Positions 2,536-48,687 of a DNA stretch of 58,660 bases are shown one piece after another; positions within the stretch are counted from its first letter, which is position 1, and each line of letters begins with the position of its first letter. The stretch spans positions 1 to 58,660 of IMG/VR virus record IMGVR_UViG_3300047275_000458. One strand, given 5' to 3'. The position numbers and the translations under genes were made by a program. Under the pieces are notes generated by a model that saw only the letters and a list, made by a program, of their open reading frames with translations, was not told the DNA's origin and ran no database searches. Source of the stretch: a virus (taxonomy: Duplodnaviria > Caudoviricetes).

Positions 2536-4653
2536 ATGGAACAAGGGATAAATATTACCTCTGAGACAGCCCCCGGTGTGACAAACATCGGTGGTATTGT
2601 GCCCGTTAAGTCTGTAAAACAGCTAATGGACGAGCAGCGCGAAGCTGCTAATCGTGCTAATTCTGAGCCGGTTATTCAAAACTTGGCTGCGTATATTAAA
2701 CAGAAGTGGTATTACTCTCGATTTTCCAAAGAAATGACAATCGAGCAGCGCATGCTAAAAAGCGTGCGGCAGCGTCGTGGGGAATACGATCCTGATTTGT
2801 TGGTGCAGTTGCGCGAACAGAATTCCAGTTTGATTTATATGATGTTGACTTCCAACAAATGCCGTGCGGCGTCCAGTTGGTTGCGCGACGTATTACTTAC
2901 AGATTCCAAAGATAAACCCTGGTCGCTAAAGCCTAACCCCATCCCTGAAATGCCTCCTCCGGTCCTGCAAGGGCTGATGCAGCAGGCACAGCAGAAACTG
3001 ATGGCGTTTATGCAAACCGGTGTTAATCCCACCGATCAAGAAGTACGGCAGATTTTGCTTGATTTTAAAGACCAGGCCATGGGTGAGTTAACCGAGTTGG
3101 CGAAAGAAGACGCTAACCGGATGGAAAGAAAAATGCATAGTCAGTTGTTAGATGGACAGTGGACGACAGCGTTTGCACAGTTTATTGATGATTTGGTGAC
3201 GTTCCCGTGTGCAATTATTAAAGGGCCGGTTGTACGGTCTAAGCCTCACATGAATTGGGTTCCTGTTGGGGATTCGTACGAACTACGAGTGCAAAACGAA
3301 TTATCGTTGGAGTGGGAGCGAGTTGATCCGTTTAATATCTACCCCGCCCCAGATGCATCTCATATTGATGACGGTTATCTAATTGAGCGTCATCGCTTGC
3401 AGCGTGCCGATTTAGTCGGAATGCTGGGGGTTGAAGGATATAGTGACGGTGCTATCCGTGCCGTGCTTGAAGAATACGGTAAAGGAGGCTTACGTGACTG
3501 GATTTATGTTGACCTTACAAAGGCTGCTGCAGAAGGTAAAAGCACGGTTGCAGCCGGGCAAAACCCCTCGGAGCTCATCGATGCCCTCCAATTCTGGGGA
3601 AGTGTCCAAGGGCAACTCCTCCTCGACTGGGGCCTCACGGAAGAAGAAGTCCCGGACCCGCTCGCAGAGTACCCCATCGAAGCGTGGCTTATCGGCCGCT
3701 GGATCATCAAAGCGGTCATCAACCCAGACCCGCTCGGCAGAAAGCCGTACTACAAAACGTCCTACGAAGAAGTCCCCGGCGCGTTCTGGGGGAACTCGGT
3801 AGCTGATCTGTGTCGGGATAGTCAGTCCATGTGTAACGCCGTAGCGCGTGCGCTCGTGAACAATATGAGCCTAGCCTCCGGCCCGCAGGTTGTATACAAC
3901 ATTGATCGTTTGCCTCAGGGCGAAAACATTACACAACTATTCCCATGGAAAATTTGGCAAGTCACGAGCGACCCTCTCAATGGAAATGCCCGGCCTGTGG
4001 AGTTTTATCAGCCCGACTCGAGAGCGTCAGAACTTATGGCGGTGTACGAGAAGTTTGCAGTTCTTGCGGACGAATATACTGGGATTCCTCGCTACATGAC
4101 GGGTGGCAACCCATCGGGCGGCGCAGGCCGAACGGCTTCGGGGATGTCCATGCTGATGACGAACGCCGGAAAGTCAATCAAGCAAGTGATTGCTAACATC
4201 GATGAACACGTAATTAAACCGCTTATTGACAGGTTGTACTATTACAACATGCGTTACAGCGACGATCCAGATCTGAAGGGCGACGTAAATATTCAAGCCC
4301 TTGGCGCGGCAAGCCTGATGGAGAAAGAAGCCATTCAGCAGCGTCAGAACGAATTCCTAGGTATTGCCTTGAACTCTCCAGTTGCCCAGCAAGTCATAGG
4401 CATGGAAGGTGTAGCAGAATTGCTACGGCAGGCTGCTAAGCGCCTAGATATGAACGTGGATGATATTGTGCCACCCGAAGACGTAGTTAAGCGTAAAGTT
4501 ATGGAAGCCAACGCAATGCAGCAAGCGCAAATGATGGCTAACCAACAAAACGGGCAAGCACAAGCTGGTGGTACACCACCGGTACCCGGACCGGACCAAG
4601 GCTTACTGATGGATGGATCGCCGCAAACAAGTCGATTTACTCCATCGGCCTAG
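2536..4653 (+). CDS. Portal protein (P22-like size)
   Basis: 705 aa after terL; ERVDPFNIYP and RTASG motifs; Q-rich C-terminus. Confidence 0.88.
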   Translation: MEQGINITSETAPGVTNIGGIVPVKSVKQLMDEQREAANRANSEPVIQNLAAYIKQKWYYSRFSKEMTIEQRMLKSVRQRRGEYDPDLLVQLREQNSSLIYMMLTSNKCRAASSWLRDVLLTDSKDKPWSLKPNPIPEMPPPVLQGLMQQAQQKLMAFMQTGVNPTDQEVRQILLDFKDQAMGELTELAKEDANRMERKMHSQLLDGQWTTAFAQFIDDLVTFPCAIIKGPVVRSKPHMNWVPVGDSYELRVQNELSLEWERVDPFNIYPAPDASHIDDGYLIERHRLQRADLVGMLGVEGYSDGAIRAVLEEYGKGGLRDWIYVDLTKAAAEGKSTVAAGQNPSELIDALQFWGSVQGQLLLDWGLTEEEVPDPLAEYPIEAWLIGRWIIKAVINPDPLGRKPYYKTSYEEVPGAFWGNSVADLCRDSQSMCNAVARALVNNMSLASGPQVVYNIDRLPQGENITQLFPWKIWQVTSDPLNGNARPVEFYQPDSRASELMAVYEKFAVLADEYTGIPRYMTGGNPSGGAGRTASGMSMLMTNAGKSIKQVIANIDEHVIKPLIDRLYYYNMRYSDDPDLKGDVNIQALGAASLMEKEAIQQRQNEFLGIALNSPVAQQVIGMEGVAELLRQAAKRLDMNVDDIVPPEDVVKRKVMEANAMQQAQMMANQQNGQAQAGGTPPVPGPDQGLLMDGSPQTSRFTPSA
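3581..3802 (+). CDS. Overprinted +1-frame Ser/Arg/Lys-rich protein (73 aa) inside portal
   Basis: GGAG, 7 nt, ATG 3581; only 3 of 74 overlapping portal codons end in T; the bias ends at TAG 3800-3802. Confidence 0.7.
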   Translation: MPSNSGEVSKGNSSSTGASRKKKSRTRSQSTPSKRGLSAAGSSKRSSTQTRSAESRTTKRPTKKSPARSGGTR

Positions 4654-6303: not shown

Positions 6304-7320
6304 ATGTCTACCATTACCGCAGGCGCAACCTACCCAATTAATACCGTAGGTGGCAACGCAACATTCAACTCCCCCACGGGAGCACAGACGTACGCAGGTA
6401 CCGCATATTCGGGTACTTTTATTCCGGCCCTCTGGTCCGGCAAACTGGCGCAGAAGTTCTACGCCGCTACTGTATTTGGTGAAATCGCTAACACCGACTG
6501 GCAAGGCGACATCACTGGCATGGGCGATACCGTGATCATCAACACGATCCCGACGATCACCATCAACAACTACAGCATCGGTCAGAACCTTGCTTACGAA
6601 ATTCCTGCTCCTTCTACGATCAGCCTTACGATCAATAAAGGTAAGTATTTCGGCGTGAACGTAAACAACGTTCTTGAACTGCAAGCCAAGCCCAAGCTGA
6701 TGGATGTGTTTACTAACGACGCAGCTATGCAGATGAAGATCAATATCGACCAGGACGTATTGGGCGGTACATTTGATCAGGGCGCTGCTACCAACAAAGG
6801 TGCAACTGCTGGTGCAATCTCTAGTTCTTTCAACCTTGGCACCGACGCGGCTCCGATTGCGTTGACCGCCGCTAACATTCTGCAGAGCCTTACTGCTCTG
6901 TCGTCTGTTCTTGACGAGAACAACGTACCTGAGACCGATCGTTGGTTGATCATTGGCCCAACCGAGCGTCAAGTGTTGATGCAGTCCAACCTGGCACAAG
7001 CTCAGTTCATGGGAGACCCCTCCTCGATTCTGCGTAACGGCAAGATCGGACAGATTGACCGCTTCACGGTGTATGTCAGCAACCTGCTGCCCCGCGCCCT
7101 TGCTGGTCAAAACTTTTCAGGGGGTGTTTCGGCTGGTACGGCTAAGCGTCATGCCATCATGGCTGGTCACAAGTCGGCAATCACTTTTGCATCACAGATT
7201 GCTAAAGTTGAAAGTCTCCAGAACCCAAATGACTTCGGCACTTTAATCCGTGGCTTAAACGTTTACGGATATAAAGTAGTTCAAGACAAAGGTTTGGCTC
7301 TCCTACTTGCAGCAGGCTAA
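6304..7320 (+). CDS. Major capsid protein
   Basis: 338 aa, FIPALWSGKL and GDTVII motifs, highly-expressed codon bias, followed by a terminator. Confidence 0.9.
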   Translation: MSTITAGATYPINTVGGNATFNSPTGAQTYAGTAYSGTFIPALWSGKLAQKFYAATVFGEIANTDWQGDITGMGDTVIINTIPTITINNYSIGQNLAYEIPAPSTISLTINKGKYFGVNVNNVLELQAKPKLMDVFTNDAAMQMKINIDQDVLGGTFDQGAATNKGATAGAISSSFNLGTDAAPIALTAANILQSLTALSSVLDENNVPETDRWLIIGPTERQVLMQSNLAQAQFMGDPSSILRNGKIGQIDRFTVYVSNLLPRALAGQNFSGGVSAGTAKRHAIMAGHKSAITFASQIAKVESLQNPNDFGTLIRGLNVYGYKVVQDKGLALLLAAG

Positions 7321-18946: not shown

Positions 18947-19306
18947 ATGATTGGTCGCCTGATTGCAATATTGTTTCTAAGTCGTGAAGTTGCTCATAGA
19001 GAGCATCTGCGTACAAAATCATACGCACAACATATGGCACTAGGTTCGTTTTACGATAGCATCGTAGATTTGGCTGATAGCCTTGCTGAAGCATATCAAG
19101 GTCGTCATGGGATTATTCGAGATATCCCACAATTGCCGTTAGATAGTAAAGGCGAGATTGACGATATTCTAGAGCGCCATTTAGATATGGTAGAGAAAAT
19201 TCGTTACACCGCGGTTGAGAAATCTGAGACCGCTTTGCAAAATATTATTGACGAAGTAGTATCACAATATTTATCGACTTTATATAAATTACGAAATTTA
19301 CTGTGA
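18947..19306 (+). CDS. Ferritin/Dps-like four-helix protein (DUF5856-like)
   Basis: H..H..T.SYA.H.ALG.FYD....L.D...E.YQG and NIIDE.......TLYKL motifs. Confidence 0.7.
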   Translation: MIGRLIAILFLSREVAHREHLRTKSYAQHMALGSFYDSIVDLADSLAEAYQGRHGIIRDIPQLPLDSKGEIDDILERHLDMVEKIRYTAVEKSETALQNIIDEVVSQYLSTLYKLRNLL

Positions 19307-19761
19307 GTGATATTGATCCAATACTTACTGCGGCAAAAGGTGCGGCACAAGGCATCAAATCAGCAATTCAGTCGGGCAAGGAGTTGTCGTCTGCCGTAGA
19401 TGATATTCAGCGTCTAGGTGTAGCCGAGTTACAAGCCAAGCAGGCGTATAAGAAAAAGCAGAGGTTTGTTACAGGAGATACTACAATTATGACTGCCTTC
19501 GCTGAGTGGCGCAGATTAAAGCAAATTAAAGAAGCAGAAAACGAATTAAAGGATAGTTTAATTGAGCGGTACGGCAAGTTTGAGGCCGAGAAGGAATGGG
19601 TTGAGATTCTGGCGATTAAAGAACGCCAGATGAAGGAAGTAAAAGACGGCAAAGACGAGTTTGGTAGGGATCTGGCTAAATTAAGACTTTTAAAGGTCTG
19701 GTGCTTCACCATATCCTTCTTTTTGGTAACTATTTATTATATTGCTAAGGGGCATTTATGA
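19303..19761 (+). CDS. Hypothetical protein with a C-terminal TM helix
   Basis: Coupled start/stop overlaps; coiled coil plus hydrophobic tail. Confidence 0.65.
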   Translation: MSDIDPILTAAKGAAQGIKSAIQSGKELSSAVDDIQRLGVAELQAKQAYKKKQRFVTGDTTIMTAFAEWRRLKQIKEAENELKDSLIERYGKFEAEKEWVEILAIKERQMKEVKDGKDEFGRDLAKLRLLKVWCFTISFFLVTIYYIAKGHL

Positions 19762-20198
19762 TTCCGTTTGCCGCGCTATTATCGATCGGTGAAAAAGTTC
19801 TAGACAAGGTTTTGCCAGATCCTGCAGCTAAAGCAGAAGCTCAAGCTAAACTTATGGAGTTGGCGCAAAAAGGGCATTTGGGTGAATTAGAAGCCATGGC
19901 AAAAGAAATGGAATCGGCCCGTAATCGGGAGGTTCAAATTGCTACAAGCCAGTTTGCCCCAATAATCAATAAGATTGTTACTCCTATTTTGGCTCTTGGC
20001 ACGGTAGCCCTGACCTTTATTTTGTTCTTGGTGATTATATTTGTGGAAGTAAACACCCAGTCCAAAGACATTCTTATCTACGTTCTAGGCGCCTTGACCT
20101 CGGCCATGACCATGGTCTTGGGCTATTATTTTGGGTCTAGTCAAGGCAGTAAGGAAAAATCCATGCAACTTGACGAAATCATGGATAAGAAGAAATGA
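19758..20198 (+). CDS. Holin-like protein (3TM/GTA-holin type)
   Basis: LDKVLPDP..KAEAQ.KL, two TM helices, YYFGSS; directly upstream of endolysin. Confidence 0.7.
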   Translation: MIPFAALLSIGEKVLDKVLPDPAAKAEAQAKLMELAQKGHLGELEAMAKEMESARNREVQIATSQFAPIINKIVTPILALGTVALTFILFLVIIFVEVNTQSKDILIYVLGALTSAMTMVLGYYFGSSQGSKEKSMQLDEIMDKKK

Positions 20199-20659
20199 AC
20201 CTAACAACTAACTTTACCTTGTCTGAGCTAGTCAAAAGCGATACAGCTTTGCGGCATGACATGGATAACACCCCTGGAGAAACAGAAATTGAAAATCTTC
20301 GACAATTATGTGAGCAGGTTCTTCAACCTGTTAGAGACTATTTCCAGAAGGGGGTCAAGTGTAACTCCGGCTATCGCGCCCCCGCCGTTAATCAAAAAGT
20401 TGGTGGAAGCCCAACGTCAGACCACTGCAAAGGGCAAGCGGCGGACATCGAAATCCCAGGCATCGCCAACGCGGACCTCGCCAAGTGGATCACGGAAAAC
20501 CTCAACTTCACGCAAGTCATCCTCGAGTTCTACACGCCAGGTGTCCCGGACAGCGGCTGGGTTCACGTCAGCTACGACCCGCAAAACCTTAAAAAGCAAA
20601 CCCTAACTGCCACAAAACAAAACGGAAAAACCGTCTACTTACCAGGCCTTGTAGCATAA
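20195..20659 (+). CDS. Endolysin, peptidase M15 family
   Basis: NF.L.EL..S, SGYR, S.H..G.AAD, W.H.SY zinc-peptidase motifs. Confidence 0.9.
   Translation: MNLTTNFTLSELVKSDTALRHDMDNTPGETEIENLRQLCEQVLQPVRDYFQKGVKCNSGYRAPAVNQKVGGSPTSDHCKGQAADIEIPGIANADLAKWITENLNFTQVILEFYTPGVPDSGWVHVSYDPQNLKKQTLTATKQNGKTVYLPGLVA
20403..20606 (+). CDS. Overprinted +1-frame Ser/Thr/Arg/Lys-rich protein inside endolysin (start uncertain: 20256, 20289 or 20403)
   Basis: Only 3 of 66 endolysin codons from 20408 end in T, none in the first 44; the frame closes at TAA 20604-20606. Confidence 0.55.
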   Translation: MEAQRQTTAKGKRRTSKSQASPTRTSPSGSRKTSTSRKSSSSSTRQVSRTAAGFTSATTRKTLKSKP

Positions 20660-20692: not shown

Positions 20693-21937
20693 GTGGCGCA
20701 AAAACCGCTAACGGATGAGCAACTTTTAGAAGCTGTGGAAGCATATACAAAGCATCGCGGTAACAGTGATCGAGCGGCTGCGTCTTTAAATATTAACGAA
20801 AGTACTTTTCGACACAGACTTGCAGAAGCTGAACGGCGTAAAACAGTAAAAAGTAAGCTGGCTACAGAAAACAATGAAGACGAGGGTTTTGATAAAGCAG
20901 CTTTACTTCACGACCAACTTCGTTCGCTTCGAGCACAACTTCATTCAGCCCGTAAAACCACGCTGGACGAACAGTATGTTCGAGAAAAGATTATTAAGTT
21001 GGCTGAATCTGAGAGTCTGTTGGAGATACCCAACTGGATGATCAAACCACTCAAGACTAAAAGTGTTACTGGAGTGCCGACCATATTTGCTTCTGACTGG
21101 CATTGGGGTGAGGTAGTTGACACTAAACAAATCAACGATGTCAATCGATATGATTTGCGCATTGCACAAGAACGAGCGCAAATATTAATTCAAACCGCAA
21201 CTGGGATTTTAAAAACCAGATTTGCCAATCCAGAATATCCCGGGATTGTATTTGCCCTCGGTGGGGACATGGTGTCTGGCGACATCCATGAAGAACTGTC
21301 TGTGTCAAACGAACGAGAGATTATGCCCATCGTTATTGACCTTTGGGGTATTCTGACTTGGTGTATCGAAACTTTGGCAAACGAATTCGGTAACGTATTT
21401 GTTCCGTGTGTTACAGGCAACCATGGTCGCAATACATACAAGATTCGAGCTAAGGGACGGAACTTTACCTCGTTTGATTGGCTGGTCTATAACTTCCTAG
21501 CCAAACGGTTTGAAAATGATCCGCGGGTTAGATTCTTGATTCCCGACGGGTCTGACGCTTATTTTCAGATTTATGGGCACCGGTATCTGCTTACGCATGG
21601 AGATCAGTTTCGTGGCGGGGATGGCATGATAGGTGCGCTTGGCCCCATTATTCGAGGCGACCACAAAAAACGTTCCCGCAACGCACAAATTGATACAGAG
21701 TATGATACTTTGTTACTAGGGCATTGGCATCAGTTAATTCAGTTACAGCGGTTAATCGTCAACGGTTCGCTTAAGGGCTACGATGAGTATGCGTATCAAA
21801 ATAACTTCCCGTTTGAGCCACCCCGACAAGCCTTGTGGATAACTCACCCAGAACACGGAATTACCTTTTCTGCCCCTATACTAGTGGATAGAACCCCCAC
21901 CAAACGGTCGGGGACATGGGTTTCGTGGAAGGCTTAG
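20693..21937 (+). CDS. Calcineurin-like metallophosphoesterase with an N-terminal HTH
   Basis: SDWH, GGDMVSGD, GNHG, HGD, GHWH motifs; AAASLNINESTFRHRL HTH. Confidence 0.85.
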   Translation: MAQKPLTDEQLLEAVEAYTKHRGNSDRAAASLNINESTFRHRLAEAERRKTVKSKLATENNEDEGFDKAALLHDQLRSLRAQLHSARKTTLDEQYVREKIIKLAESESLLEIPNWMIKPLKTKSVTGVPTIFASDWHWGEVVDTKQINDVNRYDLRIAQERAQILIQTATGILKTRFANPEYPGIVFALGGDMVSGDIHEELSVSNEREIMPIVIDLWGILTWCIETLANEFGNVFVPCVTGNHGRNTYKIRAKGRNFTSFDWLVYNFLAKRFENDPRVRFLIPDGSDAYFQIYGHRYLLTHGDQFRGGDGMIGALGPIIRGDHKKRSRNAQIDTEYDTLLLGHWHQLIQLQRLIVNGSLKGYDEYAYQNNFPFEPPRQALWITHPEHGITFSAPILVDRTPTKRSGTWVSWKA

Positions 21938-28113: not shown

Positions 28114-31100
28114 ATGGCAATATATTTTGACGATAGTGGTGGTAGTGACGCTTTTAATCCTGCAGATTGGGGCGTTTCTACAAAACCTGCAAAACGTGGT
28201 GTTTTAGGTGCAGCCAACGACTATGTTATTAATGCCGCAAATCTTATATTAGGTGGTACTAAATCTATTGTTGACTTTGCTCAACCGGGAACCGAACTGG
28301 CTTCTCAAATTGAAGCATTAATACGCGAAGGCCAAGAAAAACAATCTGATGTAACAAAACGGGCTAAACAAGAACTTGGGCAATCCATCGAAGAAGGTGG
28401 GATGGAAGCCTTAAAAGGTGTTGGCAAATATGTTGTTCAGTCTCCTGGCCTGGCTATCTCCGAAGCAATTGGGTCGTTTGTTGTTCCCGGTATCGCTATT
28501 AAAGGTGCAGGACTATTAGGTCGGGCTACTGGTGCGGGTGAGCGTGCGATTGCGGCAGGCCGTGCTGCTGGTCCTTTACGTGCTGCTGACGAAGCCGCTC
28601 TTGCGGCTCGAGGTGTTCGGCCTTACGAAATAACGGCTGGTGTTGCTTCTGGTGCTGCACTTAGTGGCGGTGATGCGGCTGGTGATGCATATCAACAAGT
28701 CTACGAATCTCAAATTAATTTAGGGGTAAACCCTGATGAAGCAAAACGACTTGCGACAGAAGCAGCCCGCAAGGCTAGCATAGTCCCTGCTGTGATAGGT
28801 GGAGTGACCGGCATACTTGGTGCTGAAGCACAATTATTTAGCGGCGCAAAACGAAGTGGCTCAAGCATTCTAAAGTCTGCTGGGTCGGAAGCCCTTCAAG
28901 AAGCCGTTGAAGAAGGCTCAACTAAATTGTCTGCCAACCTTGCTGCTATGCAGTATGGCGTTGATACAACCCCCATGCGAGGCGTGGTGGGTGCGGCTGC
29001 TTTAGGCGGCGCGCTTGGTGGTATCACTGGTGGAGGTGTTGCGTTTGCTACACGTCGTCAATCTGGTAGTTTGTTGCAAGCCTCTAACGACAACCTTACT
29101 GGTAATTTAACTCCGGACGACGACGGTATTAAGTCTGCCATCAATGAAGATCGACAGATGTCGTTGTTCTCGGCTGAGGAACTGATGCCGCAAGTTGTAG
29201 CGCGGGAATCAGAATTGATTAACCCATACAACGTAGGTGGCTATGTCGGAGCGCAACAGGCTGGCTTGGATACGGGACTACAATTTACAAGTACCGGTGG
29301 ACAACAAAATATGGTATTTGGTGCTGGTCCTGTTCAGCAAATTCAAACGGGTACAGGTCAAGCGGCGGCTCCAGCAGCCCAAGCCACTCAACCGCAAGCG
29401 AAACCTACTGCGAGCGGACAGCAGACACCGCAGGTCGATCCGCAAATTCTTTCAGAAACCGGTCAGCGGTATGGACTAACTCAGTCACAAATGCCCGGAA
29501 CTGGCGCAGCCGTTGTTAATATTGGTGGACGTAATGTCTACGGTACTAATTCTGTTAAACAGTTTTTGACTGAGTTGACTATTGCCGACGAAGGTAAGTC
29601 CGATATTCAACGGCAAATGGAAGCCGCAGTATTTAAGTCTGGCACGATGTCTGTACAACCTACGATTACGGCTAAAGCCCTGTCGGCTGCTGCAACCAAG
29701 CAACTAGAGAAACTACAGATTAACGAAGCCGATTCGCTGGAAACGGCTGCACAGATTCTTAACGACCAGATTCGAGCATTGGGCGACGCCAATAAAAAAG
29801 CCACAGATAAAAATGTGGAAACATTGGCACGCACATACGAAGCGCTTACGGGGAGCGTATCTCCGGCATTTACTCAAATTTTAGAAGGAGCAACAAATGT
29901 ACAAAATGGACAAAAACAGCAAGTGTCTACCGGGGTGGGAGCAGTTTCAGTCGGTGGAGGAGCGCCAGCGGGCGGTACAGGACTTAATGTTCAACCCACA
30001 AACGTTCAATCCCAGCAACCAGGAAGCCAGCCTAGCGGACAGAACATCGTCCAAAATGTCCCCGGCGGAGAAGGTGGAGCACGGCCTGGAGGTGGTGGAC
30101 CCATCGACACCAATGTTTCTGTTGGCAGCGAAGCCGCGCCGTCGCAAGTAACAGAAGGCACTCCGACTGAAAAAGAAGACTTTGCCAAAAAGTTATTTGT
30201 TGACGTATTTGGCGAACGCGATGGTCTAATTGTTTACGATTTGTTAGAGGTCACTGGAAACCAATCTGTTATTGCGGCTAAGTACGATATTGATCGTACT
30301 GTGGTGTCTAAGATCAAAAACAAGTATTTTGAGTCCAACACTGGTAAACAGTCCAAAGCTCTGTGGTTTAAGCCTAAGTATCAGGCAGCGTTGAAAAACG
30401 AAGTCATTGCTCAAGGCAGGTCGTTACAAGATGTGTATACATTCTTGTCTAACGAGTCCGAAGCCCAGAAGGAAATGGAAGACCTGATTATTAAGGACTT
30501 CGAAGTAGAACCTGCAGTAGAAGGGGCGGAAGATACAACTCCTACATCGGCTGAAGAACAAGGCGCAATTGCTCCTGTCATGGGAGAAGGGCTTCTCGAA
30601 GACAAATCAGAAACTACAGCAGACGAGCGAGATACAAATCTGACGTTTGTGGGATCTGAGAAGGGCTTAAGCCAAACTAGCGATGTTAGTGAAAAAAGTA
30701 ACTGGCGTTCGTCCATAAAGAAAAACCGCAAGAACCTGAAAAATGTTAGCGATGCGCATTTACAGGATGCGGCTATGGCTGCGCTTGAGGGTAAAGTAGA
30801 CGATAAAACTTTGTTGGAAGATATTACTGCCGAACTTAAGCGACGTGAAACCGTTGCCCGTGCTAGCAAAGCTGGGCGCGAAACTATAGAAACGCAGGAG
30901 GAAGAAGATGCCGTTCAAGAGCCAAGCCCAGAAAAAGTGGATGTACGCAAACAAGCCGGAGATGGCAGAGCGGTGGCAAAAAGAGACACCGAAAAACAAG
31001 CCGTTGCCGAAGAAGATGAAGTCAGCGACGAACTCGCAACCCGCGAAGAAGACGCCGAAGATGCGTGGAACAGCCTAGTCACAAGTAAAGAAGTTGAAGC

Positions 31101-34100
31101 CCTTGGCTTGGCAGAGTGGGTCGAACTGTCTGAAGCCCAGCAAGCACTAGTCTTGCGTCTGGATGATCCGTCTACGCTAACCATGCGTAACGTTGAGAAG
31201 ATTCTTGCGCTTGAAGACGATACCCGCACTATTGACGTTGAAGCCCGTGAAGTTAGCCCGGGTGAGCGTCGTATGATTGAAAACGGAATAAAACAGCTTC
31301 CAAACACACAAGTTGCTACCCTAGAAAAACATTACGGGGCGAAGTCTGGAACAGCAGAGTTTATTAGCAAACTCGCTACTGATGTAACTAACTATATTAA
31401 CAAAGGCGCTGAGTCTGTTGCCGCTGCCATCCGTGGGATTATTAAGTCCATGGCAGAAGGTATGGTTGCTTTTGGCCTAGTATTTAACCCGGCTATTCAA
31501 TACAGTGGTTTTGACTATAACGTTGAAGCCATATACGAAAAAGCAAAAGAACAGAAAACGCAAGTACCAGCTAACGCTAAAGCCAAGATGTCTCCTCTGG
31601 CTCAGGCTGTGTACCGCGATATGGCTGCTACAGCCAAGAAAACCGGCAAGGGCTTTATGATTGCCGACAAACAAGCGGGTATGATCCACGCGTTTAACGC
31701 TGATGGCAGTCTACTAGTCCAAGACAGCGCTTTGTTTGGCAAAGATATCGGTGACAAAGTAACTACGTCTTCGTTCCAAGGTGGGCCAAAGATTACCCCC
31801 GCCGGGAAATTTACGCTTAAAGTTTCTAAAGATGAGAGTTATGCTGGCGGTTATGTGCTTGGCATGGAAGAAACGTACGATGCAGGCGAAGGCAGTTGGG
31901 TGGCTATCCACGCCGCATACTTAGGCAACACCGGTGAAAAACGCCTTGAGCGTTTAGCCAGTGGAGACGCCAAGGAAAAGCGTGTTAGTTATGGATGTAT
32001 TAATACTACTCACGACACATTCCTTAACAAGTTTAAGCCAAACCTCGATAAGTTTGATGGTGGTATGGTATTTGTGCTGCCCGAAGAAACAGTAAATATT
32101 GCCGCTGCTAAAACAGGCAAGGTTCAGTTTTCTAAAAAGGTAGCCGCTGGAGGTTCAAAAGCCTCAGACGTTCGGAAAAAACTTCGTAACTTTATTGGCG
32201 CAGAAAATGAAGCTCGGATGCAGGTGTATCAGAGTATTGACGAAATTCCTGTTGACATACAGAAAAAAGTTGAAAAAGCTTCTGGCGAAGCCATTACTTC
32301 GAATACGCAAGGATTTATTGTAGATCGGAAAGCATATCTAATTGCTGACAATATTAGCCCCGGAACTGAACGGGCTGTGTTTATGCACGAAGTTGGTTCC
32401 CACCTGGGTTTGGAAAATATCCTTACCGAAGAACAATTTGACAAGTTAGTAGACACTCTTCTTGAATGGTCTGGTCGGCAAGATGATTCTCTAGAATGTA
32501 CTTTAGCTACTAAAGCGTTGGTTCGAGTTATTGACGCTAACAGCACAGATGCGCAACGTAATAGTGAAATGGTTGCGTATTTTATTGAAGAAGCGCTGCT
32601 TGCTGGTGTCAACCCTAAAGCTGTTGCTGAAGGAACAGGGTTTGCGTCTTGGTTCCGTACACTATGGTCAGCGTTTAAGCAGGGTATTCGCAAACTGAAT
32701 TTGTTTAATCCAGACAAAATGAATGCCACAGATATTATTAATATGGCATACGGAGCAGCACGCTTGGAGATTGCGGGTACTTGGCACGGGACTGCTGCTG
32801 AGTTTCGCCGGTTTAATCATATGTATATGAGTACTGGTGAAGGGGCTCAAGCTTATGGCTGGGGAACGTACTTAGCGCAACGGTTTGGTATTGCTTACGA
32901 ATACATGACTTCTGATGTTAGTAGAAAAACAAGAACTGAATTTACTTGGCAAAATCCAGAAGCCGTTCAAGTTTATTTTGAAAATCATCCATTAACTAAC
33001 ACAAAAGCTAAAGAAAAAATTTACGATCTAAACACTCAAGGGCTTTTAGTTCAAAAAGGATATCCTATTGAGCCGGAAGATTTAGCACGAATGTATGTAA
33101 GTGGTCATTATTTCGACAGTGCTAGCATTTCTGCTAAGCCTTTGTGGGTTCCAGTTACTGTTAACGGCAAAACATATACCACAAAAGATTTACAGTGGTC
33201 AGAAAAACAAATTAAACCTGCTGGAACAATGCTTCGGGTAGATGTTAATGCTAAGCAAGACGAACTGCTTAACTGGGATATCTCTCTGGCTAAACAACCT
33301 AGTATCTTAAACAAACTTGAAAAAGTATTTACAGAAGAGCTAGAAGTAAATTACGGCTTACGGTCTTGGATTACTAACCAAATAACAAAGTCTTTGAATT
33401 TTTCAGATTTAACTGGGCAAGAGTTGTATTTAACTTTGCAAGAAATTATTAAAAATTACAACCTTGCTCGGTATTACAAGCAAGACATTAGTTTGGAACA
33501 GATGTTCTTTATTGATGCAATAGAAGAAAATGCAGCACTTAAAGTTCAAAAGTATGAAACTGATGAAGTTGTATCAACATTTTTAAATGGCATTGGTATT
33601 AAAGGTCTTAAATTTTTAGACGCTCGCAGCCGTAAAAAATCAAAATCTTTCTATATTCAAAAGCTAGAAGAAGCTGAGTCAATTATTGAAGATTTTGAAG
33701 CGTGGGATGGTAAAACTCCTCGCTCTTACCCTTCTTGGGCAAAAAATACTGAGAAGCAAGCAGAATATATTGCAGATCTCAAATATAAATTATCTCAGGC
33801 CCCAGAAGATTCTGAATTAACACGCAACCTTGTTGTGTTTAGCGACAAAAATATTGTACGCGTAGCATCTTTGCAAGGGGGCAGTCAACAGGAAGTTAAG
33901 TTTAGTATTCGCCCTCTTGACCGTGGCACAGTAGAGCGCAATATCCGCAAACTTCCTTCTGGGCTACAGGGGCCAACACGCTCAACGTTTATTTCCCTGG
34001 CAAATTTTGCCCGTAAGGGTATGGATTACGTCGCATTTACCCCGGTGATTATTGACCGTGCGGTTAAGGCTGGTCTGACTGCTGCCAACAAATACCTCCG

Positions 34101-36711
34101 TCTAAACCAAGAACGGGGTCAGATGGCAAAGCAGATGGAAGAAGATGTACAGCGTATTGTGGATATGTACGCCAACGTGCCTGCAGAAAACCGTGGCACG
34201 GGTGATCGTAGCGTAAACCGTTACATATTTGACTCCACCCGCCGTGGGGTATGGGGGTTCCAACCTACCAATCGCAGCGACAAAGTAGATGTTGACCCTG
34301 AGTTGTCAATTCGCTTTAAACGTCTATCTCCTGAAGCCCAAGCATTTATCCGTGCCGTATTTAAGCATGGCGATGACATGCTGGCGCTAAAAAAGAAAAC
34401 CGTCATGGAGTTTACAAACTCGGAGTACGACGCAGCCATCGAGCAAGCCAAGAAAGACGGCGACGCCAAACTAGAAGCCTCCCTGACGGCAGACAAAAAA
34501 GCTGACCTTAAGAAATTTGACAGCTTGTTTAAGTTGCGTGAGGGTATACCCTATGCTCCGATCAAGCGTATCGGTAAGTACGTAGTGATTGCCAAGTCAG
34601 CAGAATACCGACAGGCAGAGCGTGATGGTGATGCTAAAAAGTTGCGTGACCTTGAAAAAGATCCTGACCATTACCATGTCACATTCAAAGATACGGAAGC
34701 CCAGGCTCGTGCGCTGCAACAATCTTTGGTTGATGAAGGACATTTTGGCGGGGATGAGGCTGTAGAAATAGGTGAGCGCGATCAATACGAAAACGAGTTA
34801 TACGGCGGTAACAATATCCTGCAAGCCTTGACTAAACTGCGTTCACAGATTGACGCCCGGGCAAGTTCTGAAAAAGCTGATGAGCGTGCGGGTGCTGCCA
34901 CGATGCGTCGTATTGTAACGGACTTGTACTTAGAGTCTTTGGCAGAAGCCAGCGCTCGGAAAAACGAAATGCGTCGTAAGGGCGTATCTGGTGAAGTTGA
35001 TATGCTCCAGTCGTTTGGGCTACAAGGTGCTGCCGATGCGCGGTTTCTGTCCGCCCTCCAATATGATAAACAGACGCAAGATGCTATTCAAGAAATGCGT
35101 GGACAAGTACGCACAGGTGGTGGTGATAGGTTACGGAAGTCGGAGTTGTATAACGAACTGATGGCGCGGTATGCACAGACGTTAGACTTTGAACCCATGC
35201 CGGTCACTCAAAAGCTTAACCGATTAACCTCTGTATGGTTCTTGGCGACTAGTCCGGGATACTACCTACAAAACTTAACCCAGCCATACATGATGTCGTT
35301 ACCTTTGATGGCGGCAAAACATGAAATTGGTAAATCTTCGACGGCACTGTTTAAGGCATATACTGAACTGGGCGAAGTATTTAAGAGCGCCAAGTTGTTT
35401 GAGCAGCAGTTTGACTACAGTAAAGTGCCTGCTGATGTTCGCCAAGCCATTAAGACTTTGGTTGATCGAGGCCGTATTGATATTGGTATTGATACCGAAC
35501 TTGGCAACGCACGGATTGAAGGTGCTGGTGCATTTGAAGACCGCTGGAATAAAGTAGATAAAGGTCTACGGCTTGCTGTTCAGAAAGTAGAGATTCTAAA
35601 CCGTCTATCTACTGCGATTGCAGCCTATCGGTTAGAAATGGCAAAGTCTGGTAGCGCCGCTAAAGCCCTGCAGTATGCGGACGACATTCTTGTGGATACC
35701 CATGGCGACTACAGCGCGTTTGCTGCACCGCGAGCATTTAATACAAATATTGGTAAAGTTGCTCTCCAGTTCCGTAAGTTCCAGTTGATCCAGTTAAGCT
35801 TGATGTCAAAGCTAATTAAAGATGCCTACACAGGTAAAGATCGAGCCGTTGCCGTAAAAGCCCTAACTTACATCCTAGGTAACACGGCTGTTATGGCTGG
35901 TGTGCTTGGGTTGCCCGGTATGTCAGCCATTGCTTGGATACTTGGTCAGTTACTAGGCGATGACGACGAGCCGTTTATTCTTGAGAAAGAATTGCGGGAG
36001 TATATTGGGGACGAGGATCTTGCCAACATAATTACGCGTGGCGTACCTACAGTGGCGGGGGCAGACTTGTCGGGTAAGATTGGTATGGGAAATATGTTGT
36101 CAGTCTTACCGTTTACCGAGATTGACAAACTAAATGGTGAGAAAACTGCAGAGATTATTGGTACGTTGATAGCGGGCCCTGCTGGTGGATTGTTGGCCCG
36201 GGGTGCGGATGGCGCTGCATACATGGCTAACGGCGATTACTGGAAGGGTTTGGAGTTGATGACCCCGAAGGGTGTTGGGGATGCCATGAAGGCTTATCGT
36301 ATTGCGAATGAAGGTGTAACCAACAATCGTGGGGATGTGTTGTTACCGCCCGAAGAACTAGGCGATCTGGACACTATTTGGCGGGCGTTTGGTCTTTCCC
36401 CTGTTAAACAGACAGTGCGGTCTGCTAAGCAAGGGTTTAAAATAGACTACGAAGCAAAATACGAAGCTCAGTCTGGGGAAATTAAGAGAGACTATATTCG
36501 GGCAGTCAAGGAAAATGATAACGAGGCCAAAGAAGAGGCTCGTCAGAAATGGAAGAAACTGCAGGAAGCACGCAAGCGCAATGGCTTTAAAGTTCAGCCA
36601 TTGTCTGAGTTGTTGACTTCTCCAAGAGAGCAGCGTAAGCGTGAGCGTAAGACCGTAGGGGGTGTGCAGTTTGACACCGGATCACGTAGGTTTGTGGAAG
36701 GATTACAGTAA
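28114..36711 (+). CDS. Giant polyvalent internal virion protein (L,D-transpeptidase-like, metallopeptidase, ART-like and PLxRFG-like domains)
   Basis: IHAAY...SYGCIN; MHEVGSH; WHGT...TGEGAQAYGWGTY; YAPIKRIGKY. Confidence 0.8.
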   Translation: MAIYFDDSGGSDAFNPADWGVSTKPAKRGVLGAANDYVINAANLILGGTKSIVDFAQPGTELASQIEALIREGQEKQSDVTKRAKQELGQSIEEGGMEALKGVGKYVVQSPGLAISEAIGSFVVPGIAIKGAGLLGRATGAGERAIAAGRAAGPLRAADEAALAARGVRPYEITAGVASGAALSGGDAAGDAYQQVYESQINLGVNPDEAKRLATEAARKASIVPAVIGGVTGILGAEAQLFSGAKRSGSSILKSAGSEALQEAVEEGSTKLSANLAAMQYGVDTTPMRGVVGAAALGGALGGITGGGVAFATRRQSGSLLQASNDNLTGNLTPDDDGIKSAINEDRQMSLFSAEELMPQVVARESELINPYNVGGYVGAQQAGLDTGLQFTSTGGQQNMVFGAGPVQQIQTGTGQAAAPAAQATQPQAKPTASGQQTPQVDPQILSETGQRYGLTQSQMPGTGAAVVNIGGRNVYGTNSVKQFLTELTIADEGKSDIQRQMEAAVFKSGTMSVQPTITAKALSAAATKQLEKLQINEADSLETAAQILNDQIRALGDANKKATDKNVETLARTYEALTGSVSPAFTQILEGATNVQNGQKQQVSTGVGAVSVGGGAPAGGTGLNVQPTNVQSQQPGSQPSGQNIVQNVPGGEGGARPGGGGPIDTNVSVGSEAAPSQVTEGTPTEKEDFAKKLFVDVFGERDGLIVYDLLEVTGNQSVIAAKYDIDRTVVSKIKNKYFESNTGKQSKALWFKPKYQAALKNEVIAQGRSLQDVYTFLSNESEAQKEMEDLIIKDFEVEPAVEGAEDTTPTSAEEQGAIAPVMGEGLLEDKSETTADERDTNLTFVGSEKGLSQTSDVSEKSNWRSSIKKNRKNLKNVSDAHLQDAAMAALEGKVDDKTLLEDITAELKRRETVARASKAGRETIETQEEEDAVQEPSPEKVDVRKQAGDGRAVAKRDTEKQAVAEEDEVSDELATREEDAEDAWNSLVTSKEVEALGLAEWVELSEAQQALVLRLDDPSTLTMRNVEKILALEDDTRTIDVEAREVSPGERRMIENGIKQLPNTQVATLEKHYGAKSGTAEFISKLATDVTNYINKGAESVAAAIRGIIKSMAEGMVAFGLVFNPAIQYSGFDYNVEAIYEKAKEQKTQVPANAKAKMSPLAQAVYRDMAATAKKTGKGFMIADKQAGMIHAFNADGSLLVQDSALFGKDIGDKVTTSSFQGGPKITPAGKFTLKVSKDESYAGGYVLGMEETYDAGEGSWVAIHAAYLGNTGEKRLERLASGDAKEKRVSYGCINTTHDTFLNKFKPNLDKFDGGMVFVLPEETVNIAAAKTGKVQFSKKVAAGGSKASDVRKKLRNFIGAENEARMQVYQSIDEIPVDIQKKVEKASGEAITSNTQGFIVDRKAYLIADNISPGTERAVFMHEVGSHLGLENILTEEQFDKLVDTLLEWSGRQDDSLECTLATKALVRVIDANSTDAQRNSEMVAYFIEEALLAGVNPKAVAEGTGFASWFRTLWSAFKQGIRKLNLFNPDKMNATDIINMAYGAARLEIAGTWHGTAAEFRRFNHMYMSTGEGAQAYGWGTYLAQRFGIAYEYMTSDVSRKTRTEFTWQNPEAVQVYFENHPLTNTKAKEKIYDLNTQGLLVQKGYPIEPEDLARMYVSGHYFDSASISAKPLWVPVTVNGKTYTTKDLQWSEKQIKPAGTMLRVDVNAKQDELLNWDISLAKQPSILNKLEKVFTEELEVNYGLRSWITNQITKSLNFSDLTGQELYLTLQEIIKNYNLARYYKQDISLEQMFFIDAIEENAALKVQKYETDEVVSTFLNGIGIKGLKFLDARSRKKSKSFYIQKLEEAESIIEDFEAWDGKTPRSYPSWAKNTEKQAEYIADLKYKLSQAPEDSELTRNLVVFSDKNIVRVASLQGGSQQEVKFSIRPLDRGTVERNIRKLPSGLQGPTRSTFISLANFARKGMDYVAFTPVIIDRAVKAGLTAANKYLRLNQERGQMAKQMEEDVQRIVDMYANVPAENRGTGDRSVNRYIFDSTRRGVWGFQPTNRSDKVDVDPELSIRFKRLSPEAQAFIRAVFKHGDDMLALKKKTVMEFTNSEYDAAIEQAKKDGDAKLEASLTADKKADLKKFDSLFKLREGIPYAPIKRIGKYVVIAKSAEYRQAERDGDAKKLRDLEKDPDHYHVTFKDTEAQARALQQSLVDEGHFGGDEAVEIGERDQYENELYGGNNILQALTKLRSQIDARASSEKADERAGAATMRRIVTDLYLESLAEASARKNEMRRKGVSGEVDMLQSFGLQGAADARFLSALQYDKQTQDAIQEMRGQVRTGGGDRLRKSELYNELMARYAQTLDFEPMPVTQKLNRLTSVWFLATSPGYYLQNLTQPYMMSLPLMAAKHEIGKSSTALFKAYTELGEVFKSAKLFEQQFDYSKVPADVRQAIKTLVDRGRIDIGIDTELGNARIEGAGAFEDRWNKVDKGLRLAVQKVEILNRLSTAIAAYRLEMAKSGSAAKALQYADDILVDTHGDYSAFAAPRAFNTNIGKVALQFRKFQLIQLSLMSKLIKDAYTGKDRAVAVKALTYILGNTAVMAGVLGLPGMSAIAWILGQLLGDDDEPFILEKELREYIGDEDLANIITRGVPTVAGADLSGKIGMGNMLSVLPFTEIDKLNGEKTAEIIGTLIAGPAGGLLARGADGAAYMANGDYWKGLELMTPKGVGDAMKAYRIANEGVTNNRGDVLLPPEELGDLDTIWRAFGLSPVKQTVRSAKQGFKIDYEAKYEAQSGEIKRDYIRAVKENDNEAKEEARQKWKKLQEARKRNGFKVQPLSELLTSPREQRKRERKTVGGVQFDTGSRRFVEGLQ
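29897..30151 (+). CDS. Overprinted +1-frame protein (84 aa) inside the giant gene
   Basis: AAGGAG, 6 nt, ATG; the host frame is a low-complexity linker; ends AAKPRRRK. Confidence 0.55.
   Translation: MYKMDKNSKCLPGWEQFQSVEERQRAVQDLMFNPQTFNPSNQEASLADRTSSKMSPAEKVEHGLEVVDPSTPMFLLAAKPRRRK
30908..31078 (+). CDS. Overprinted +1-frame basic protein MPFKSQAQKKWMYANKPEMAERWQKETPK... (56 aa), not in the ORF track
   Basis: AGGAGG, 6 nt, ATG; resembles a small phage protein type I recall as free-standing (unverified). Confidence 0.75.
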   Translation: MPFKSQAQKKWMYANKPEMAERWQKETPKNKPLPKKMKSATNSQPAKKTPKMRGTA

Positions 36712-46538: not shown

Positions 46539-48395
46539 TTACGATTTCGCGTCTCCATAATTGTATGAAAAACCACCTTCACAGGCAACTGGTAAATCAG
46601 AAGCCCACTTGGGAGGAGTGTGCATGACATCTTCCATCAGTTTCAGGCAGGCTTGAGCGAATCCGTCAGGCACACACGCAACCACTTCGTCATGCACCGT
46701 CAGTACAACTTTAAATCGGTACTCGGAAGTATCCAGTTTGCGCAAGGCTTGATCAATCTTTGCCATCTGATCAAACACAACGATCCGGGCTAGGGCTTGG
46801 ACTACGTTCTCTACCACCTTACCCCCGTAAATATTGACGGGGCCATAGCGCCCATCGTAGACAAACCCCTCAGACGTTTTGCGCAAGTTGGGGTAGTAAA
46901 TAAACATGCCGTTGGGCAACCATATCTTCTCGCCTATACATTTAAGTTTGATACCTGTACCAAACTCATACTCATACCCGCTAGTCATCTTGGCAAGCGC
47001 GGTGTCAGCTTCCTTCCACAAAGCGGCAACATAAGAATACTTCTCTCTATAGAGTTTGACTATGCGTTCTGCATCTTCGATAGGCAGATCCACTGATACG
47101 CCTGCCTGCCCAATCTTGAGCGTAGACTTAAACTTGTCTTTGCCCATGCCGTAGCCTAGCCCCAAGATACAAGTCTTGCCTACAAAGCGTTCTATTTTGT
47201 CTACAGACTTATCGATTGTCCGTCCGTAAACTTCAGTCGCAAATTTGGAATAGATGTCGATTTTGTTTCGGAAATCATCAAGTAAATCGATTTGCCCTGC
47301 AAGCCACGCGACAACCCGCGCTTCGATCTGCGACGAGTCACACGCGACCAACGCATGATTTTGCGGTACAGATATGGATTTCCTAAGACTTCCTCCCCTT
47401 GGAAGATTCTGCAAGTTAATTTTGTCCCCGCCACTTGCGCGACCAGTATGAGCCCCGTAGTAATTGAGAAGTATAGGTAGCGCACCTCGCTTAGCGATGG
47501 CAATGAACGATTCAGTGCGCGTCTCTTCCAAAGTTGATTTGACGCCAAGTCGCGCCGAGACAACGGCTTGCACGCGGGGATCGTCATGCTCCAACAAAGC
47601 CTTGAACTCACTATCGGTCTTACCAAAGGCATAGGTTTCCTTTCCGGTACGTAGGCTAGTCTTTGTGGGCGGTTCAACGCCTAACTTGCGTAGTACCTCA
47701 GCAAATTGTGGATTAGACATTAGGTTATCTCTGCCAATGCTAGCATCGATACGTTCCATTAACGTCTGCTTTTTCGTACGAATGTTTACAAGGTGTTGCT
47801 CTAATACATCCTCACGAAGCTGTAACACAGGATCAATAAACATCCTAAGCATCAAATCAATAATGTATTGCTCCTTTGGCGTGGAGTATTGTTGCAGCAC
47901 CCTATACAACGTGTAAGTAAGTTCCACGTCGTTTATGCAATAGTCTGCATAGGCTTGCATTTCCTCAGGCGTAAAGTCTGCTCCATGTTTACCAATGGCA
48001 TTGAGTGCTTCCTTGCCCTTCTCACCAAGTACAAACTTCTTAACCAGTTTGTCAAGCGAACCGCCTACCGTCAAACCCGTGATAGGTCGCGACATGCTTA
48101 GCGTGTCAAGGTAATACTTAGGCTTAATCCCGAAGTGCCAATTGAGGATTGCCCCATCAAACGCCATGTTGTGCGCCAATAGGTAAGAGTCCTCAATTCT
48201 AAACTGCGACAGGAACGCCTTGATCTGTGCGTGCGTACCGCTACACCATTGCGTCTGCTGATCGGCTATCTTGACTGCTACACCAATAACTTCAAAACGT
48301 TTGTCGCGGATATAGGCTTCTGTGGTTAACTTCTTGAGCCCATATTCCTTGTCGTAGTATGTTTCGAAGTCAATGGTAATAATGTTAGTCGTCAT
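46539..48395 (-). CDS. DNA polymerase, family A, with 3'-5' exonuclease
   Basis: DFETYY, HN..FD, HTGR, NLQN, D.SQIE.R, K...LG..YG, VHDE. Confidence 0.93.
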   Translation of the reverse strand: MTTNIITIDFETYYDKEYGLKKLTTEAYIRDKRFEVIGVAVKIADQQTQWCSGTHAQIKAFLSQFRIEDSYLLAHNMAFDGAILNWHFGIKPKYYLDTLSMSRPITGLTVGGSLDKLVKKFVLGEKGKEALNAIGKHGADFTPEEMQAYADYCINDVELTYTLYRVLQQYSTPKEQYIIDLMLRMFIDPVLQLREDVLEQHLVNIRTKKQTLMERIDASIGRDNLMSNPQFAEVLRKLGVEPPTKTSLRTGKETYAFGKTDSEFKALLEHDDPRVQAVVSARLGVKSTLEETRTESFIAIAKRGALPILLNYYGAHTGRASGGDKINLQNLPRGGSLRKSISVPQNHALVACDSSQIEARVVAWLAGQIDLLDDFRNKIDIYSKFATEVYGRTIDKSVDKIERFVGKTCILGLGYGMGKDKFKSTLKIGQAGVSVDLPIEDAERIVKLYREKYSYVAALWKEADTALAKMTSGYEYEFGTGIKLKCIGEKIWLPNGMFIYYPNLRKTSEGFVYDGRYGPVNIYGGKVVENVVQALARIVVFDQMAKIDQALRKLDTSEYRFKVVLTVHDEVVACVPDGFAQACLKLMEDVMHTPPKWASDLPVACEGGFSYNYGDAKS

Positions 48396-48687
48396 ATCTT
48401 CCTTGGGCTGCTTGGTCAAAGTCATTTTTCGCGGGGCGATTAATCCTACCTGACTTCCACAAAGCCTCCATTCGTTGACGCTGTTCCTCCCGTTTCTCGG
48501 GTGTCCACGCTACCTTCTTGCGTACAATTCTAATTCGCTTGGGCTTATCGACAGGCATAGCAACCGTGCCCCCTGCTTGGCTAATCCAAAACTTTAACTG
48601 CAATTCTACAGTTCGAAAGTTTTCTGCCGCAATACTCTCAAGTTCTTCTTTAAGTGATTCACTAATAAGGATTTGTGCCATGCTCAT
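48385..48687 (-). CDS. Possible RHH/Arc-like regulator with a basic tail
   Basis: I.ISE.LK..L...A..N.RT...QL. Confidence 0.55.
   Translation of the reverse strand: MSMAQILISESLKEELESIAAENFRTVELQLKFWISQAGGTVAMPVDKPKRIRIVRKKVAWTPEKREEQRQRMEALWKSGRINRPAKNDFDQAAQGRYDD

Follow-up and report, generated by a model that had tools for sequence, protein, structure and literature searches.

Does the portal gene of the tailed phage recorded in IMG/VR as IMGVR_UViG_3300047275_000458 carry a second gene within its own coding sequence? The stretch of DNA analysed, referred to here as the window, is the whole record of 58,660 nucleotides, and its portal gene (positions 2536-4653, + strand) encodes 705 amino acids (aa). 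An earlier note on this DNA proposed that GGAG (3570-3573), 7 nt and an ATG (3581-3583) open a protamine-like protein of 73 aa in the +1 frame of the portal, ending with TAG at 3800-3802. All of these elements are present, and the translation from ATG 3581 reads as written (19 Lys + Arg, 20 Ser, 2 acidic residues). Comparison with relatives indicates that the portal gene probably does contain a real overprinted gene on the same strand and in the +1 frame, with 102 codons instead of 73, of a kind that standard annotation misses.

Boundaries and start signal of the nested frame

Relatives were collected by searching the portal against IMG/VR and metagenome contigs, which gave 80 and 55 loci (designated by L numbers below) with 42-99% identity. 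Three further loci came from a DNA-pattern scan, and after removal of duplicates 112 unique portal sequences were codon-aligned. Portals sharing the patch of unusual codon usage described below are termed bearers; they comprise 19 unique sequences in about eight lineages, namely the window with its 99% relatives, a 97.6% group (L003-6 and others), L008/L013, L009, L026/L027/L146, L147, L138 and the partial L108. The nested open reading frame (ORF; 3494-3802, + strand, 102 codons plus TAG) has exactly 102 codons in 19 of 19 unique bearers. Its stop, TAG at 3800-3802, straddles the portal codons GTA GCT and has the same position in all of them; in the complete bearers the first stop of the +1 frame is always found at this identical place, and the fractions of patch codons ending in C (C3) and in T (T3) are 0.46-0.52 and 0.02-0.07, respectively.

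When the in-frame start codons were listed per bearer, the single candidate common to all was a GTG at 3494-3496 (+ strand), 87 nt upstream of ATG 3581. This probable start straddles the portal codons CGT GAC and follows, after 5 nt, a Shine-Dalgarno (SD) sequence, AAAGGAGG (3481-3488, + strand), which is formed by the portal codons AAA GGA GG(N) and is present in 19 of 19 unique bearers. The start region encodes the portal residues K-G-G-L-R-D, for which all 19 bearers read AAA GGA GGY (TTA, CTA or CTG) CGT. Among the 38 unique non-bearer portals with those residues, the first Gly of KGGLR is never GGA (GGC or GGT being used instead), and the Arg is CGT in 21, CGC in 16 and CGG in one, vs CGT in every bearer. 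SD, GTG and open frame are combined in none of the other unique portals with regional data (about 80 rows), most of which have 2-9 stops there. Across IMG/VR the pattern AAAGGAGG-N-Y-TAC-GTGA-N-TGG was found in 16 contigs, each time in a bearer portal gene, and an independent pattern taken from the 3' part of the ORF returned the identical 16 contigs. AGGAGG is rare in the genome (11 sites on both strands of 58.66 kb). An SD-like motif precedes 46 of 68 crude gene starts, which indicates that the host uses SD sequences.

Relative to these boundaries, the GGAG and ATG previously taken as the start (3570-3583, + strand) include an internal Met codon, residue 30 of the nested ORF. The ATG is confined to the window, its 99% relatives and the L026/L027 lineage; the site is ACG (Asp GAC in the portal) in the 97.6% group (L003-6/L024/L050), L008/L013 and L009, residue 30 of the nested product is Thr in L147 and L138, and GGAG is lost in the 97.6% group. 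The alignment of homologues upheld one end of the frame first proposed, the TAG, which all bearers keep, and not the other, for which neither GGAG nor ATG is kept. The conserved signal is AAAGGAGG, 5 nt and GTG 3494, and the shared GTG gives a protein of 102 aa in place of 73. ATG 3581 possibly serves as a secondary start in the window strain.

An SD-like sequence inside a gene can also stimulate +1 frameshifting, as in prfB, and the +1 frame is already open 23-37 codons ahead of the GTG, so the same elements might be read as a programmed, SD-stimulated +1 frameshift out of the portal that yields a truncated portal fused to a basic tail. This is scarcely credible. By inspection no slippery site follows the SD, where the sequence is YTA/CTG CGT GAN; the GTG is kept through CGT in 19 of 19 bearers, which a frameshift does not need; and the synonymous constraint described below starts at the SD, not upstream of it. 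Under the preferred reading of a separate gene, ribosomes on the late portal mRNA would start at GTG 3494, guided by the strong internal SD (3481-3488), and would read 102 codons up to TAG 3800-3802. Co-expression with the portal on the same late mRNA is plausible.

Codon usage and constraint across the overlap

The codon bias previously reported for the portal under the 73-aa frame was recovered in full. Only three portal codons end in T before the stop (GAT 3580, AGT 3601 and CTT 3688); Leu is CTC seven times and CTT once, Ile is ATC in 5 of 5 cases, and the four GTC codons for Val are followed by a GTA, from which the stop arises. Past the TAG, codons ending in T return (8 of the next 25 codons; 7 of the preceding 25). 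The C3-rich, T3-poor patch extends over 3553-3799 (+ strand), where it encodes the predicted disordered Ser/Thr/Lys/Arg tail of the nested protein, with C3 of 0.48-0.56 and T3 of 0-0.05 vs 0.21 and 0.27 in the remaining gene. In 25-codon windows along the portal, the stretch from about 3553 to about 3790 stands out, with C3 increasing from about 0.2 to 0.56 and T3 dropping to 0-0.04; the base composition of the patch is A.235, C.332, G.279 and T.154. When the genome was scanned in windows of 75 codons (13,260 windows in 47 crudely called genes; mean T3 0.336, standard deviation 0.093), the portal patch had the lowest T3 of all (0.040, at a C3 of about 0.5), with the endolysin gene (0.053) as the sole near rival. 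Synonymous resampling with the portal's own codon usage left the +1 frame open across 102 codons in a fraction of 0.0002 for the window and, with each gene's own usage, in 0.0001-0.009 for six relatives.

The geometry of the two frames, in which the third base of a portal codon is the middle base of a nested codon and the second base is its first, specifies which portal codons would be affected. After a second-position T, the nested residue is Ser if the third position is C and Phe or Leu if it is T, whereas A or G there results in Tyr, Cys or Trp or else in a stop. The four-fold degenerate Leu and Val codons of the patch end in C/T/A/G 12/1/1/0 times in the window, 13/1/1/0 times in L008, 13/0/1/1 times in L009 and 11/0/1/0 times in L027, vs 6/23/21/22, 22/16/8/43, 22/14/6/45 and 12/15/9/21 outside the patch. 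For the four-fold codons of Pro, Ala, Gly, Thr, Ser and Arg in the patch, C and G endings are similarly frequent, with some A (window 10/0/3/13). As only Leu and Val are restricted to C while the other four-fold codons are mixed, the +1 frame accounts for the pattern and a GC-rich donor does not. Upstream of the patch, the T-ending portal codons ATT TAT GTT GAY CTT are kept even in L008 and L009, which are rich in third-position G + C (GC3) and have a T3 of 0.14-0.16; in the nested frame these codons specify Phe, Met and Leu within the N-terminal helix. The unusual codons of the portal would then be due to selection on the nested frame: third-position T would be avoided as a source of hydrophobic residues, and a T in second position would be followed only by C, which yields Ser where another base would yield a stop or Tyr, Cys or Trp.

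Synonymous differences in the portal frame point in the same direction. Among seven bearers the proportion of synonymous differences (pS, Nei-Gojobori) is 0.42 in the ORF vs 0.756 in the 5' flank and 0.749 in the 3' flank, both of which are saturated, while 14 non-bearers show 0.764 in the same region and 0.786 and 0.763 in the flanks. In 30-codon windows the bearer pS declines from about 3466, reaches 0.27-0.39 for windows starting at 3586-3736 and is back at about 0.7 by 3850, so that the trough spans about 3466-3800; non-bearers remain at 0.70-0.83 throughout. Across seven bearer lineages, the 102-codon window has 40 invariant residues of the +1 frame and 42 invariant third positions, vs a mean of 9.3 (maximum 14) and 11.5 (maximum 16), respectively, in other windows of the portal, whereas invariant portal residues show no excess (73 vs a mean of 68 elsewhere). 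At invariant degenerate portal residues, seven bearers use the identical codon in 29 of 68 cases in the ORF vs 24 of 349 outside (p = 2e-12); for seven non-bearers the same test gives 12 of 79 in the region vs 33 of 372 elsewhere (p = 0.1).

Part of this could be expected if the patch were a compositional relic, that is, a GC-rich recombinant segment or gene-conversion tract in which the open +1 frame is an untranslated by-product. The patch is GC3-rich in a genome of 46.7% GC, several alternative frames are open over it, the whole portal gene has a GC3 of 0.68-0.72 in L008/L013 and in L009, and the region of the nested ORF is the most conserved portion of the portal and a likely site of recombination. 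A GC-rich donor was also what the earlier note had named as speaking against a gene. GC-rich homologues without the ORF, however, use CTG and GTG freely over the stretch (Leu/Val C/T/A/G 4/2/0/10, 2/1/0/8 and 5/2/0/8), whereas bearers have none or one G-ending codon among the 12-15 Leu/Val codons of the patch, and the patch of L008 and L009 retains its bias when compared with their own genes. Between bearers the pS of the ORF is 0.29-0.55 (0.29-0.30 for close pairs) and tracks the same three subclades as the flanks; as it never approaches zero and agrees with the subclades, the constraint is of long standing and the tract was not recently shared. Moreover, at a distance of about 60 nt ahead of the patch, SD and GTG are present in 19 of 19 bearers and in none of the 38 comparable non-bearers, and the related non-bearer L118 (see below) is without all features together. 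The relic is therefore largely refuted and has a very slim chance of being correct, and the outcome favours the earlier proposal of a nested +1-frame gene under selection, with a codon bias that fits the +1 frame specifically (Leu and Val codons end in C).

A constraint on the mRNA or DNA itself, for instance through RNA structure, C-rich binding sites for Rho or signals for packaging or regulation, would be compatible with the C-rich, T-poor strand; according to PMC8227390, troughs in synonymous rate mark non-coding elements as well as overlapping genes. Searches of 3300-4000 gave no Rfam match at E-values up to 1, and RNAalifold offered no support (covariation term +0.32; 3 of 70 pairs compensatory). 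Typical Rho-binding sites are depleted in G, whereas the G content here is 0.279. The constraint has the periodicity of codons and depends on the second base of the codon, and a non-coding element would leave the conserved SD, start, stop and exact length of the ORF unexplained, which makes this explanation highly improbable.

Predicted product, probable origin and weight of the evidence

The predicted product has 102 residues, among them 13 Arg, 12 Lys, 23 Ser, 12 Thr and 2 acidic residues, an isoelectric point of about 12 and a grand average of hydropathy (GRAVY) of -1.24. Between lineages its identity is 57-81%, vs 76-99% for the portal over the same span. With an alignment of ten sequences, AlphaFold2 predicted an amphipathic N-terminal helix at residues 2-19 (3497-3550, + strand; predicted local distance difference test (pLDDT) about 80) as the only structure (mean pLDDT 58.5), and the tail of about 80 residues is predicted to be intrinsically disordered, Ser/Thr-rich and very basic. 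The product would accordingly be described as a short amphipathic helix followed by a very basic disordered tail. Selection can be seen to enforce hydrophilicity, a tail without Cys or aromatic residues, the hydrophobic face of the helix and about 40 fixed positions.

The basic charge requires a separate view. Before a G, either synonym of a portal GAR codon yields AAG or AGG in the +1 frame; the charge is thus largely forced by the portal frame and is no evidence of selection for DNA binding, the function suggested in the earlier note. On its physical character, a nucleic-acid-binding role of the protein is plausible; the more specific proposal that the polycationic tail binds packaged DNA or host nucleic acid, with the helix acting as an anchor or in self-association, is speculative and is put forward tentatively.

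In a quick IQ-TREE tree of 55 near-full-length portal proteins, from which the overlap region was excluded, 15 bearers and one non-bearer, L118, form a single clade with a support of 99 in the Shimodaira-Hasegawa-like approximate likelihood ratio test (SH-aLRT). L118, which is the same as L025 and agrees with the partial L063 across the region, has neither the SD (CAG GGC GGA) nor the GTG (CGC ACC) and shows three stops in the +1 frame. Its codon usage in the patch is ordinary (C3 0.28, T3 0.15; Leu/Val C/T/A/G 3/2/3/3). The position of L118 is uncertain because of its long branch (0.34); if it holds, the ORF would have been lost there and the codon bias would then have decayed. Whether or not it holds, the distribution points to a single origin of the ORF in a family whose other members are without it. 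The gene would thus go back to one event in the ancestor of a single clade of freshwater podophages, all uncultured, and would have been under purifying selection since.

A further reading accepts translation and denies the peptide a function of its own: translation itself might matter, for portal synthesis or mRNA stability, or the product might merely be tolerated, with selection keeping it harmless by way of a hydrophilic, non-aggregating sequence that has neither Cys nor aromatic residues. It draws on the mostly compositional nature of the selection, in which Pro, Arg and Gln interchange and third-position T is excluded, on the charge being mostly forced by the portal frame, and on the single predicted helix with no further fold. 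It does not readily account for 40 of 102 residues being invariant among lineages whose flanking synonymous sites are saturated, for the length fixed at 102 codons with the same stop, or for helix hydrophobics kept by T-ending codons even in GC3-rich relatives; and a product that is only tolerated is most easily lost through loss of the SD or GTG, as in L118. On balance this reading is unlikely, though it deserves more credit than the relic.

Several observations weigh against a functional nested gene. No homologue, family or structural look-alike backs any function: the nested protein had no PHROG family and no ESM Atlas match, its Pfam matches were sub-threshold only (best E-value 0.07), and no homologues were found among proteins of 56-179 residues, longer and shorter ones being outside the search. 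Exchanges among Pro, Arg and Gln are tolerated at many sites of the protein, and selection seems to act on its general character and about 40 fixed positions, not on a fold. The bearers all belong to a single clade, which limits the independence of their lineages. Synonymous shuffling within the region is not significant alone (probability of no stop 0.09-0.57). The OLGenie-style ratio dNN/dNS for the +1 frame is 0.35 [0.22-0.52] in bearers and 0.58 [0.37-0.87] in non-bearers over the same region, with overlapping intervals, and the flank controls (0.74 and 0.89) are likewise below 1; although the bearers' value is the lowest, it is only suggestive of purifying selection on the nested frame. 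Over the patch, +1 is not the sole open frame: in the window +2 and two antisense frames are open too, and alternative frames are also open in several bearers. (As coding frames, antisense and +2 were rejected, being interrupted in L008/L013, L009 or L026, and the codon-aligned antisense frame has no ORF of at least 60 aa with a start in the window.) Finally, translation of the nested ORF is something we infer from sequence comparison. A riverine metatranscriptome library contains a 7.8 kb contig that spans the whole portal at about 90% identity (215 differences in 2118), which places a related phage in the riverine sample and proves neither transcription nor translation; a second RNA run yielded short pieces only.

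Genome setting, similar frames and known systems

The genome is complete, with direct terminal repeats and a GC content of 46.7%. The large terminase gene (1100-2497) precedes the portal gene, the older host frame, which was identified by Pfam SU10_portal (E-value 7e-20), PHROG 332 and 1216, and tblastn; the major capsid protein gene (6304-7320) is preceded by a probable scaffold gene and followed by further structural genes. In tblastn the nearest named phages were podophages of Rhizobium, Roseobacter and Pelagibacter, with annotated portal proteins, and Puniceispirillum podophages of the HMO-2011 type (25-38% portal identity), and no match at the DNA level was found among the 50,697 phage records searched. 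The lysis region (19303-20659, + strand) encodes a 152-aa protein with a C-terminal hydrophobic segment, a holin-like protein of 146 aa (19758-20198, + strand) and an endolysin (20195-20659, + strand). No spanin gene was recognised downstream of it, the neighbouring gene at 20693-21937 (414 aa) having been left out of the family searches. A single 2865-aa ORF (28114-36711, + strand) accounts for about 15% of the genome and presumably encodes a giant protein that is part of the virion or is ejected.

The only other comparable patch lies in the endolysin gene, where a +1-frame ORF of 116 aa (20256-20606, + strand) starts with ATG and has a Ser/Thr/Lys/Arg-rich tail. It occurs in 13 of 57 unique endolysin homologues (identity at least 81%), each time with exactly 116 codons. 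At codons 70-130, the Leu/Val four-fold codons of the 13 carriers end in C 98 times, in T twice and never in A or G, vs T 101, G 94, A 52 and C 45 in the 44 homologues without the ORF, and the synonymous difference goes down to 0.12 in carriers vs 0.58-0.75 in the others. Among the 57 homologues no start signal was found that separates carriers from non-carriers. The endolysin and portal ORFs share the frame relation, the C-only rule for Leu and Val, the basic Ser/Thr tail, the fixed length and the synonymous trough; they differ in host gene, and the endolysin bearers are scattered over many different phage contigs. The two nested proteins are dissimilar (BLASTP E-value 1.9).

A third candidate, a basic ORF of 56 aa, lies within the 2865-aa gene in its +1 frame (ATG, 30908-31078, + strand), with AGGAGG at 30896 and a spacing of 6 nt; a low-T3 window (0.12) begins at 30916, and the search for relatives gave one weak locus only. 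Two other +1 stretches exceeded all 300 synonymous resamplings, one of 119 codons from 57946 (in 57549-58028, - strand) and one of 159 codons from 47680 (in 46539-48425, - strand); their translations are not Ser/Lys/Arg-rich. It is conceivable, if rather doubtful, that freshwater tailed double-stranded DNA (dsDNA) phages repeatedly create hidden +1-frame genes in conserved structural and lysis genes, each encoding a polycationic, Ser/Thr-rich, disordered protein (portal, endolysin and possibly the giant gene). If so, these nested proteins would form a functional class of late accessory factors binding nucleic acids or polyanions, invisible to current phage annotation and recognisable by a codon rule (no third-position T, and C after second-position T).

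For the portal the comparative evidence is unusually clean, combining conserved start, stop and length, a synonymous trough, a codon signature of one frame and one lineage without all features, and the location is within a gene that ranks among the most conserved in tailed phages. The case shows that locally unusual codons in a core gene can be the trace left by a second gene, horizontal transfer not being the only explanation, and the simple codon rule can be used to find further nested genes, of which the endolysin example suggests more exist. With living relatives that have the gene and others that do not, the birth of a de novo protein becomes datable, and the way in which a new protein becomes useful directly testable.

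To our knowledge, gene callers do not permit long overlaps on the same strand, so that annotations of large dsDNA phages hardly ever include nested genes. The literature searched yielded no account of a gene lying within a portal gene (subscription journals and supplements were outside its scope). Small basic virion proteins that bind nucleic acids include phiX174 J, adenovirus VII and mu, the C-terminal domain of hepatitis B core, T4 internal proteins and protamines. The nested protein resembles them in being small, strongly cationic and largely unstructured and in having its gene among late structural genes, and, much like phiX174 J, it combines a basic region with an end that is hydrophobic or amphipathic. 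It differs from them in that it shows no homology to them, is very rich in Ser and Thr and owes its charge largely to the acidic residues of the portal. The label protamine-like applies to its high basic and low acidic content; the protein is not dominated by Arg, with Lys and Arg about equal and together about 25% of residues.

Known phage nested genes come mainly from tiny genomes or lysis cassettes; those in the +1 frame of another gene include phiX174 E in D and K in A/C, and lambda Rz1 in Rz. Here, too, a same-strand nested ORF with its own start and a small product is restricted to a clade and constrains the codons of an older host gene. The portal case differs in that the overlapped gene encodes the portal of a tailed dsDNA phage with a genome of 58.7 kb and has no link to lysis; unlike E, the product has no transmembrane segment (no dedicated predictor having been used), and unlike Rz1 it has no lipoprotein signal or Cys. 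An Rz1-type spanin or phiX174 E-type lysis protein was considered and rejected, the window's product having no Cys, a helix 2-19 that carries Gln, Arg and Lys, and a GRAVY of -1.24 (again without a dedicated transmembrane predictor).

PMC8227390 names phiX174 E and K as de novo overlapping proteins and describes de novo frames as clade-restricted, disordered and accessory. Proven viral overlapping genes, according to Pavesi et al. 2018 (PMC6195259), are enriched in C, CG/CC, Arg, Ser and Pro and depleted in T, TA/TT, Tyr and Ile. The proven cases from eukaryotic viruses occur in small RNA or single-stranded DNA viruses under strong pressure on genome size, whereas in a large dsDNA phage such pressure is not obvious. 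The ORF nested in the portal gene nonetheless fits the profile both of proven viral overlapping genes and of de novo frames: as far as those sources describe them, it shares with the eukaryotic-virus genes the enrichment in C, Ser, Arg and Pro, the depletion of T and of TA/TT, the predicted disorder, the narrow distribution and the reduced synonymous change in the older frame.

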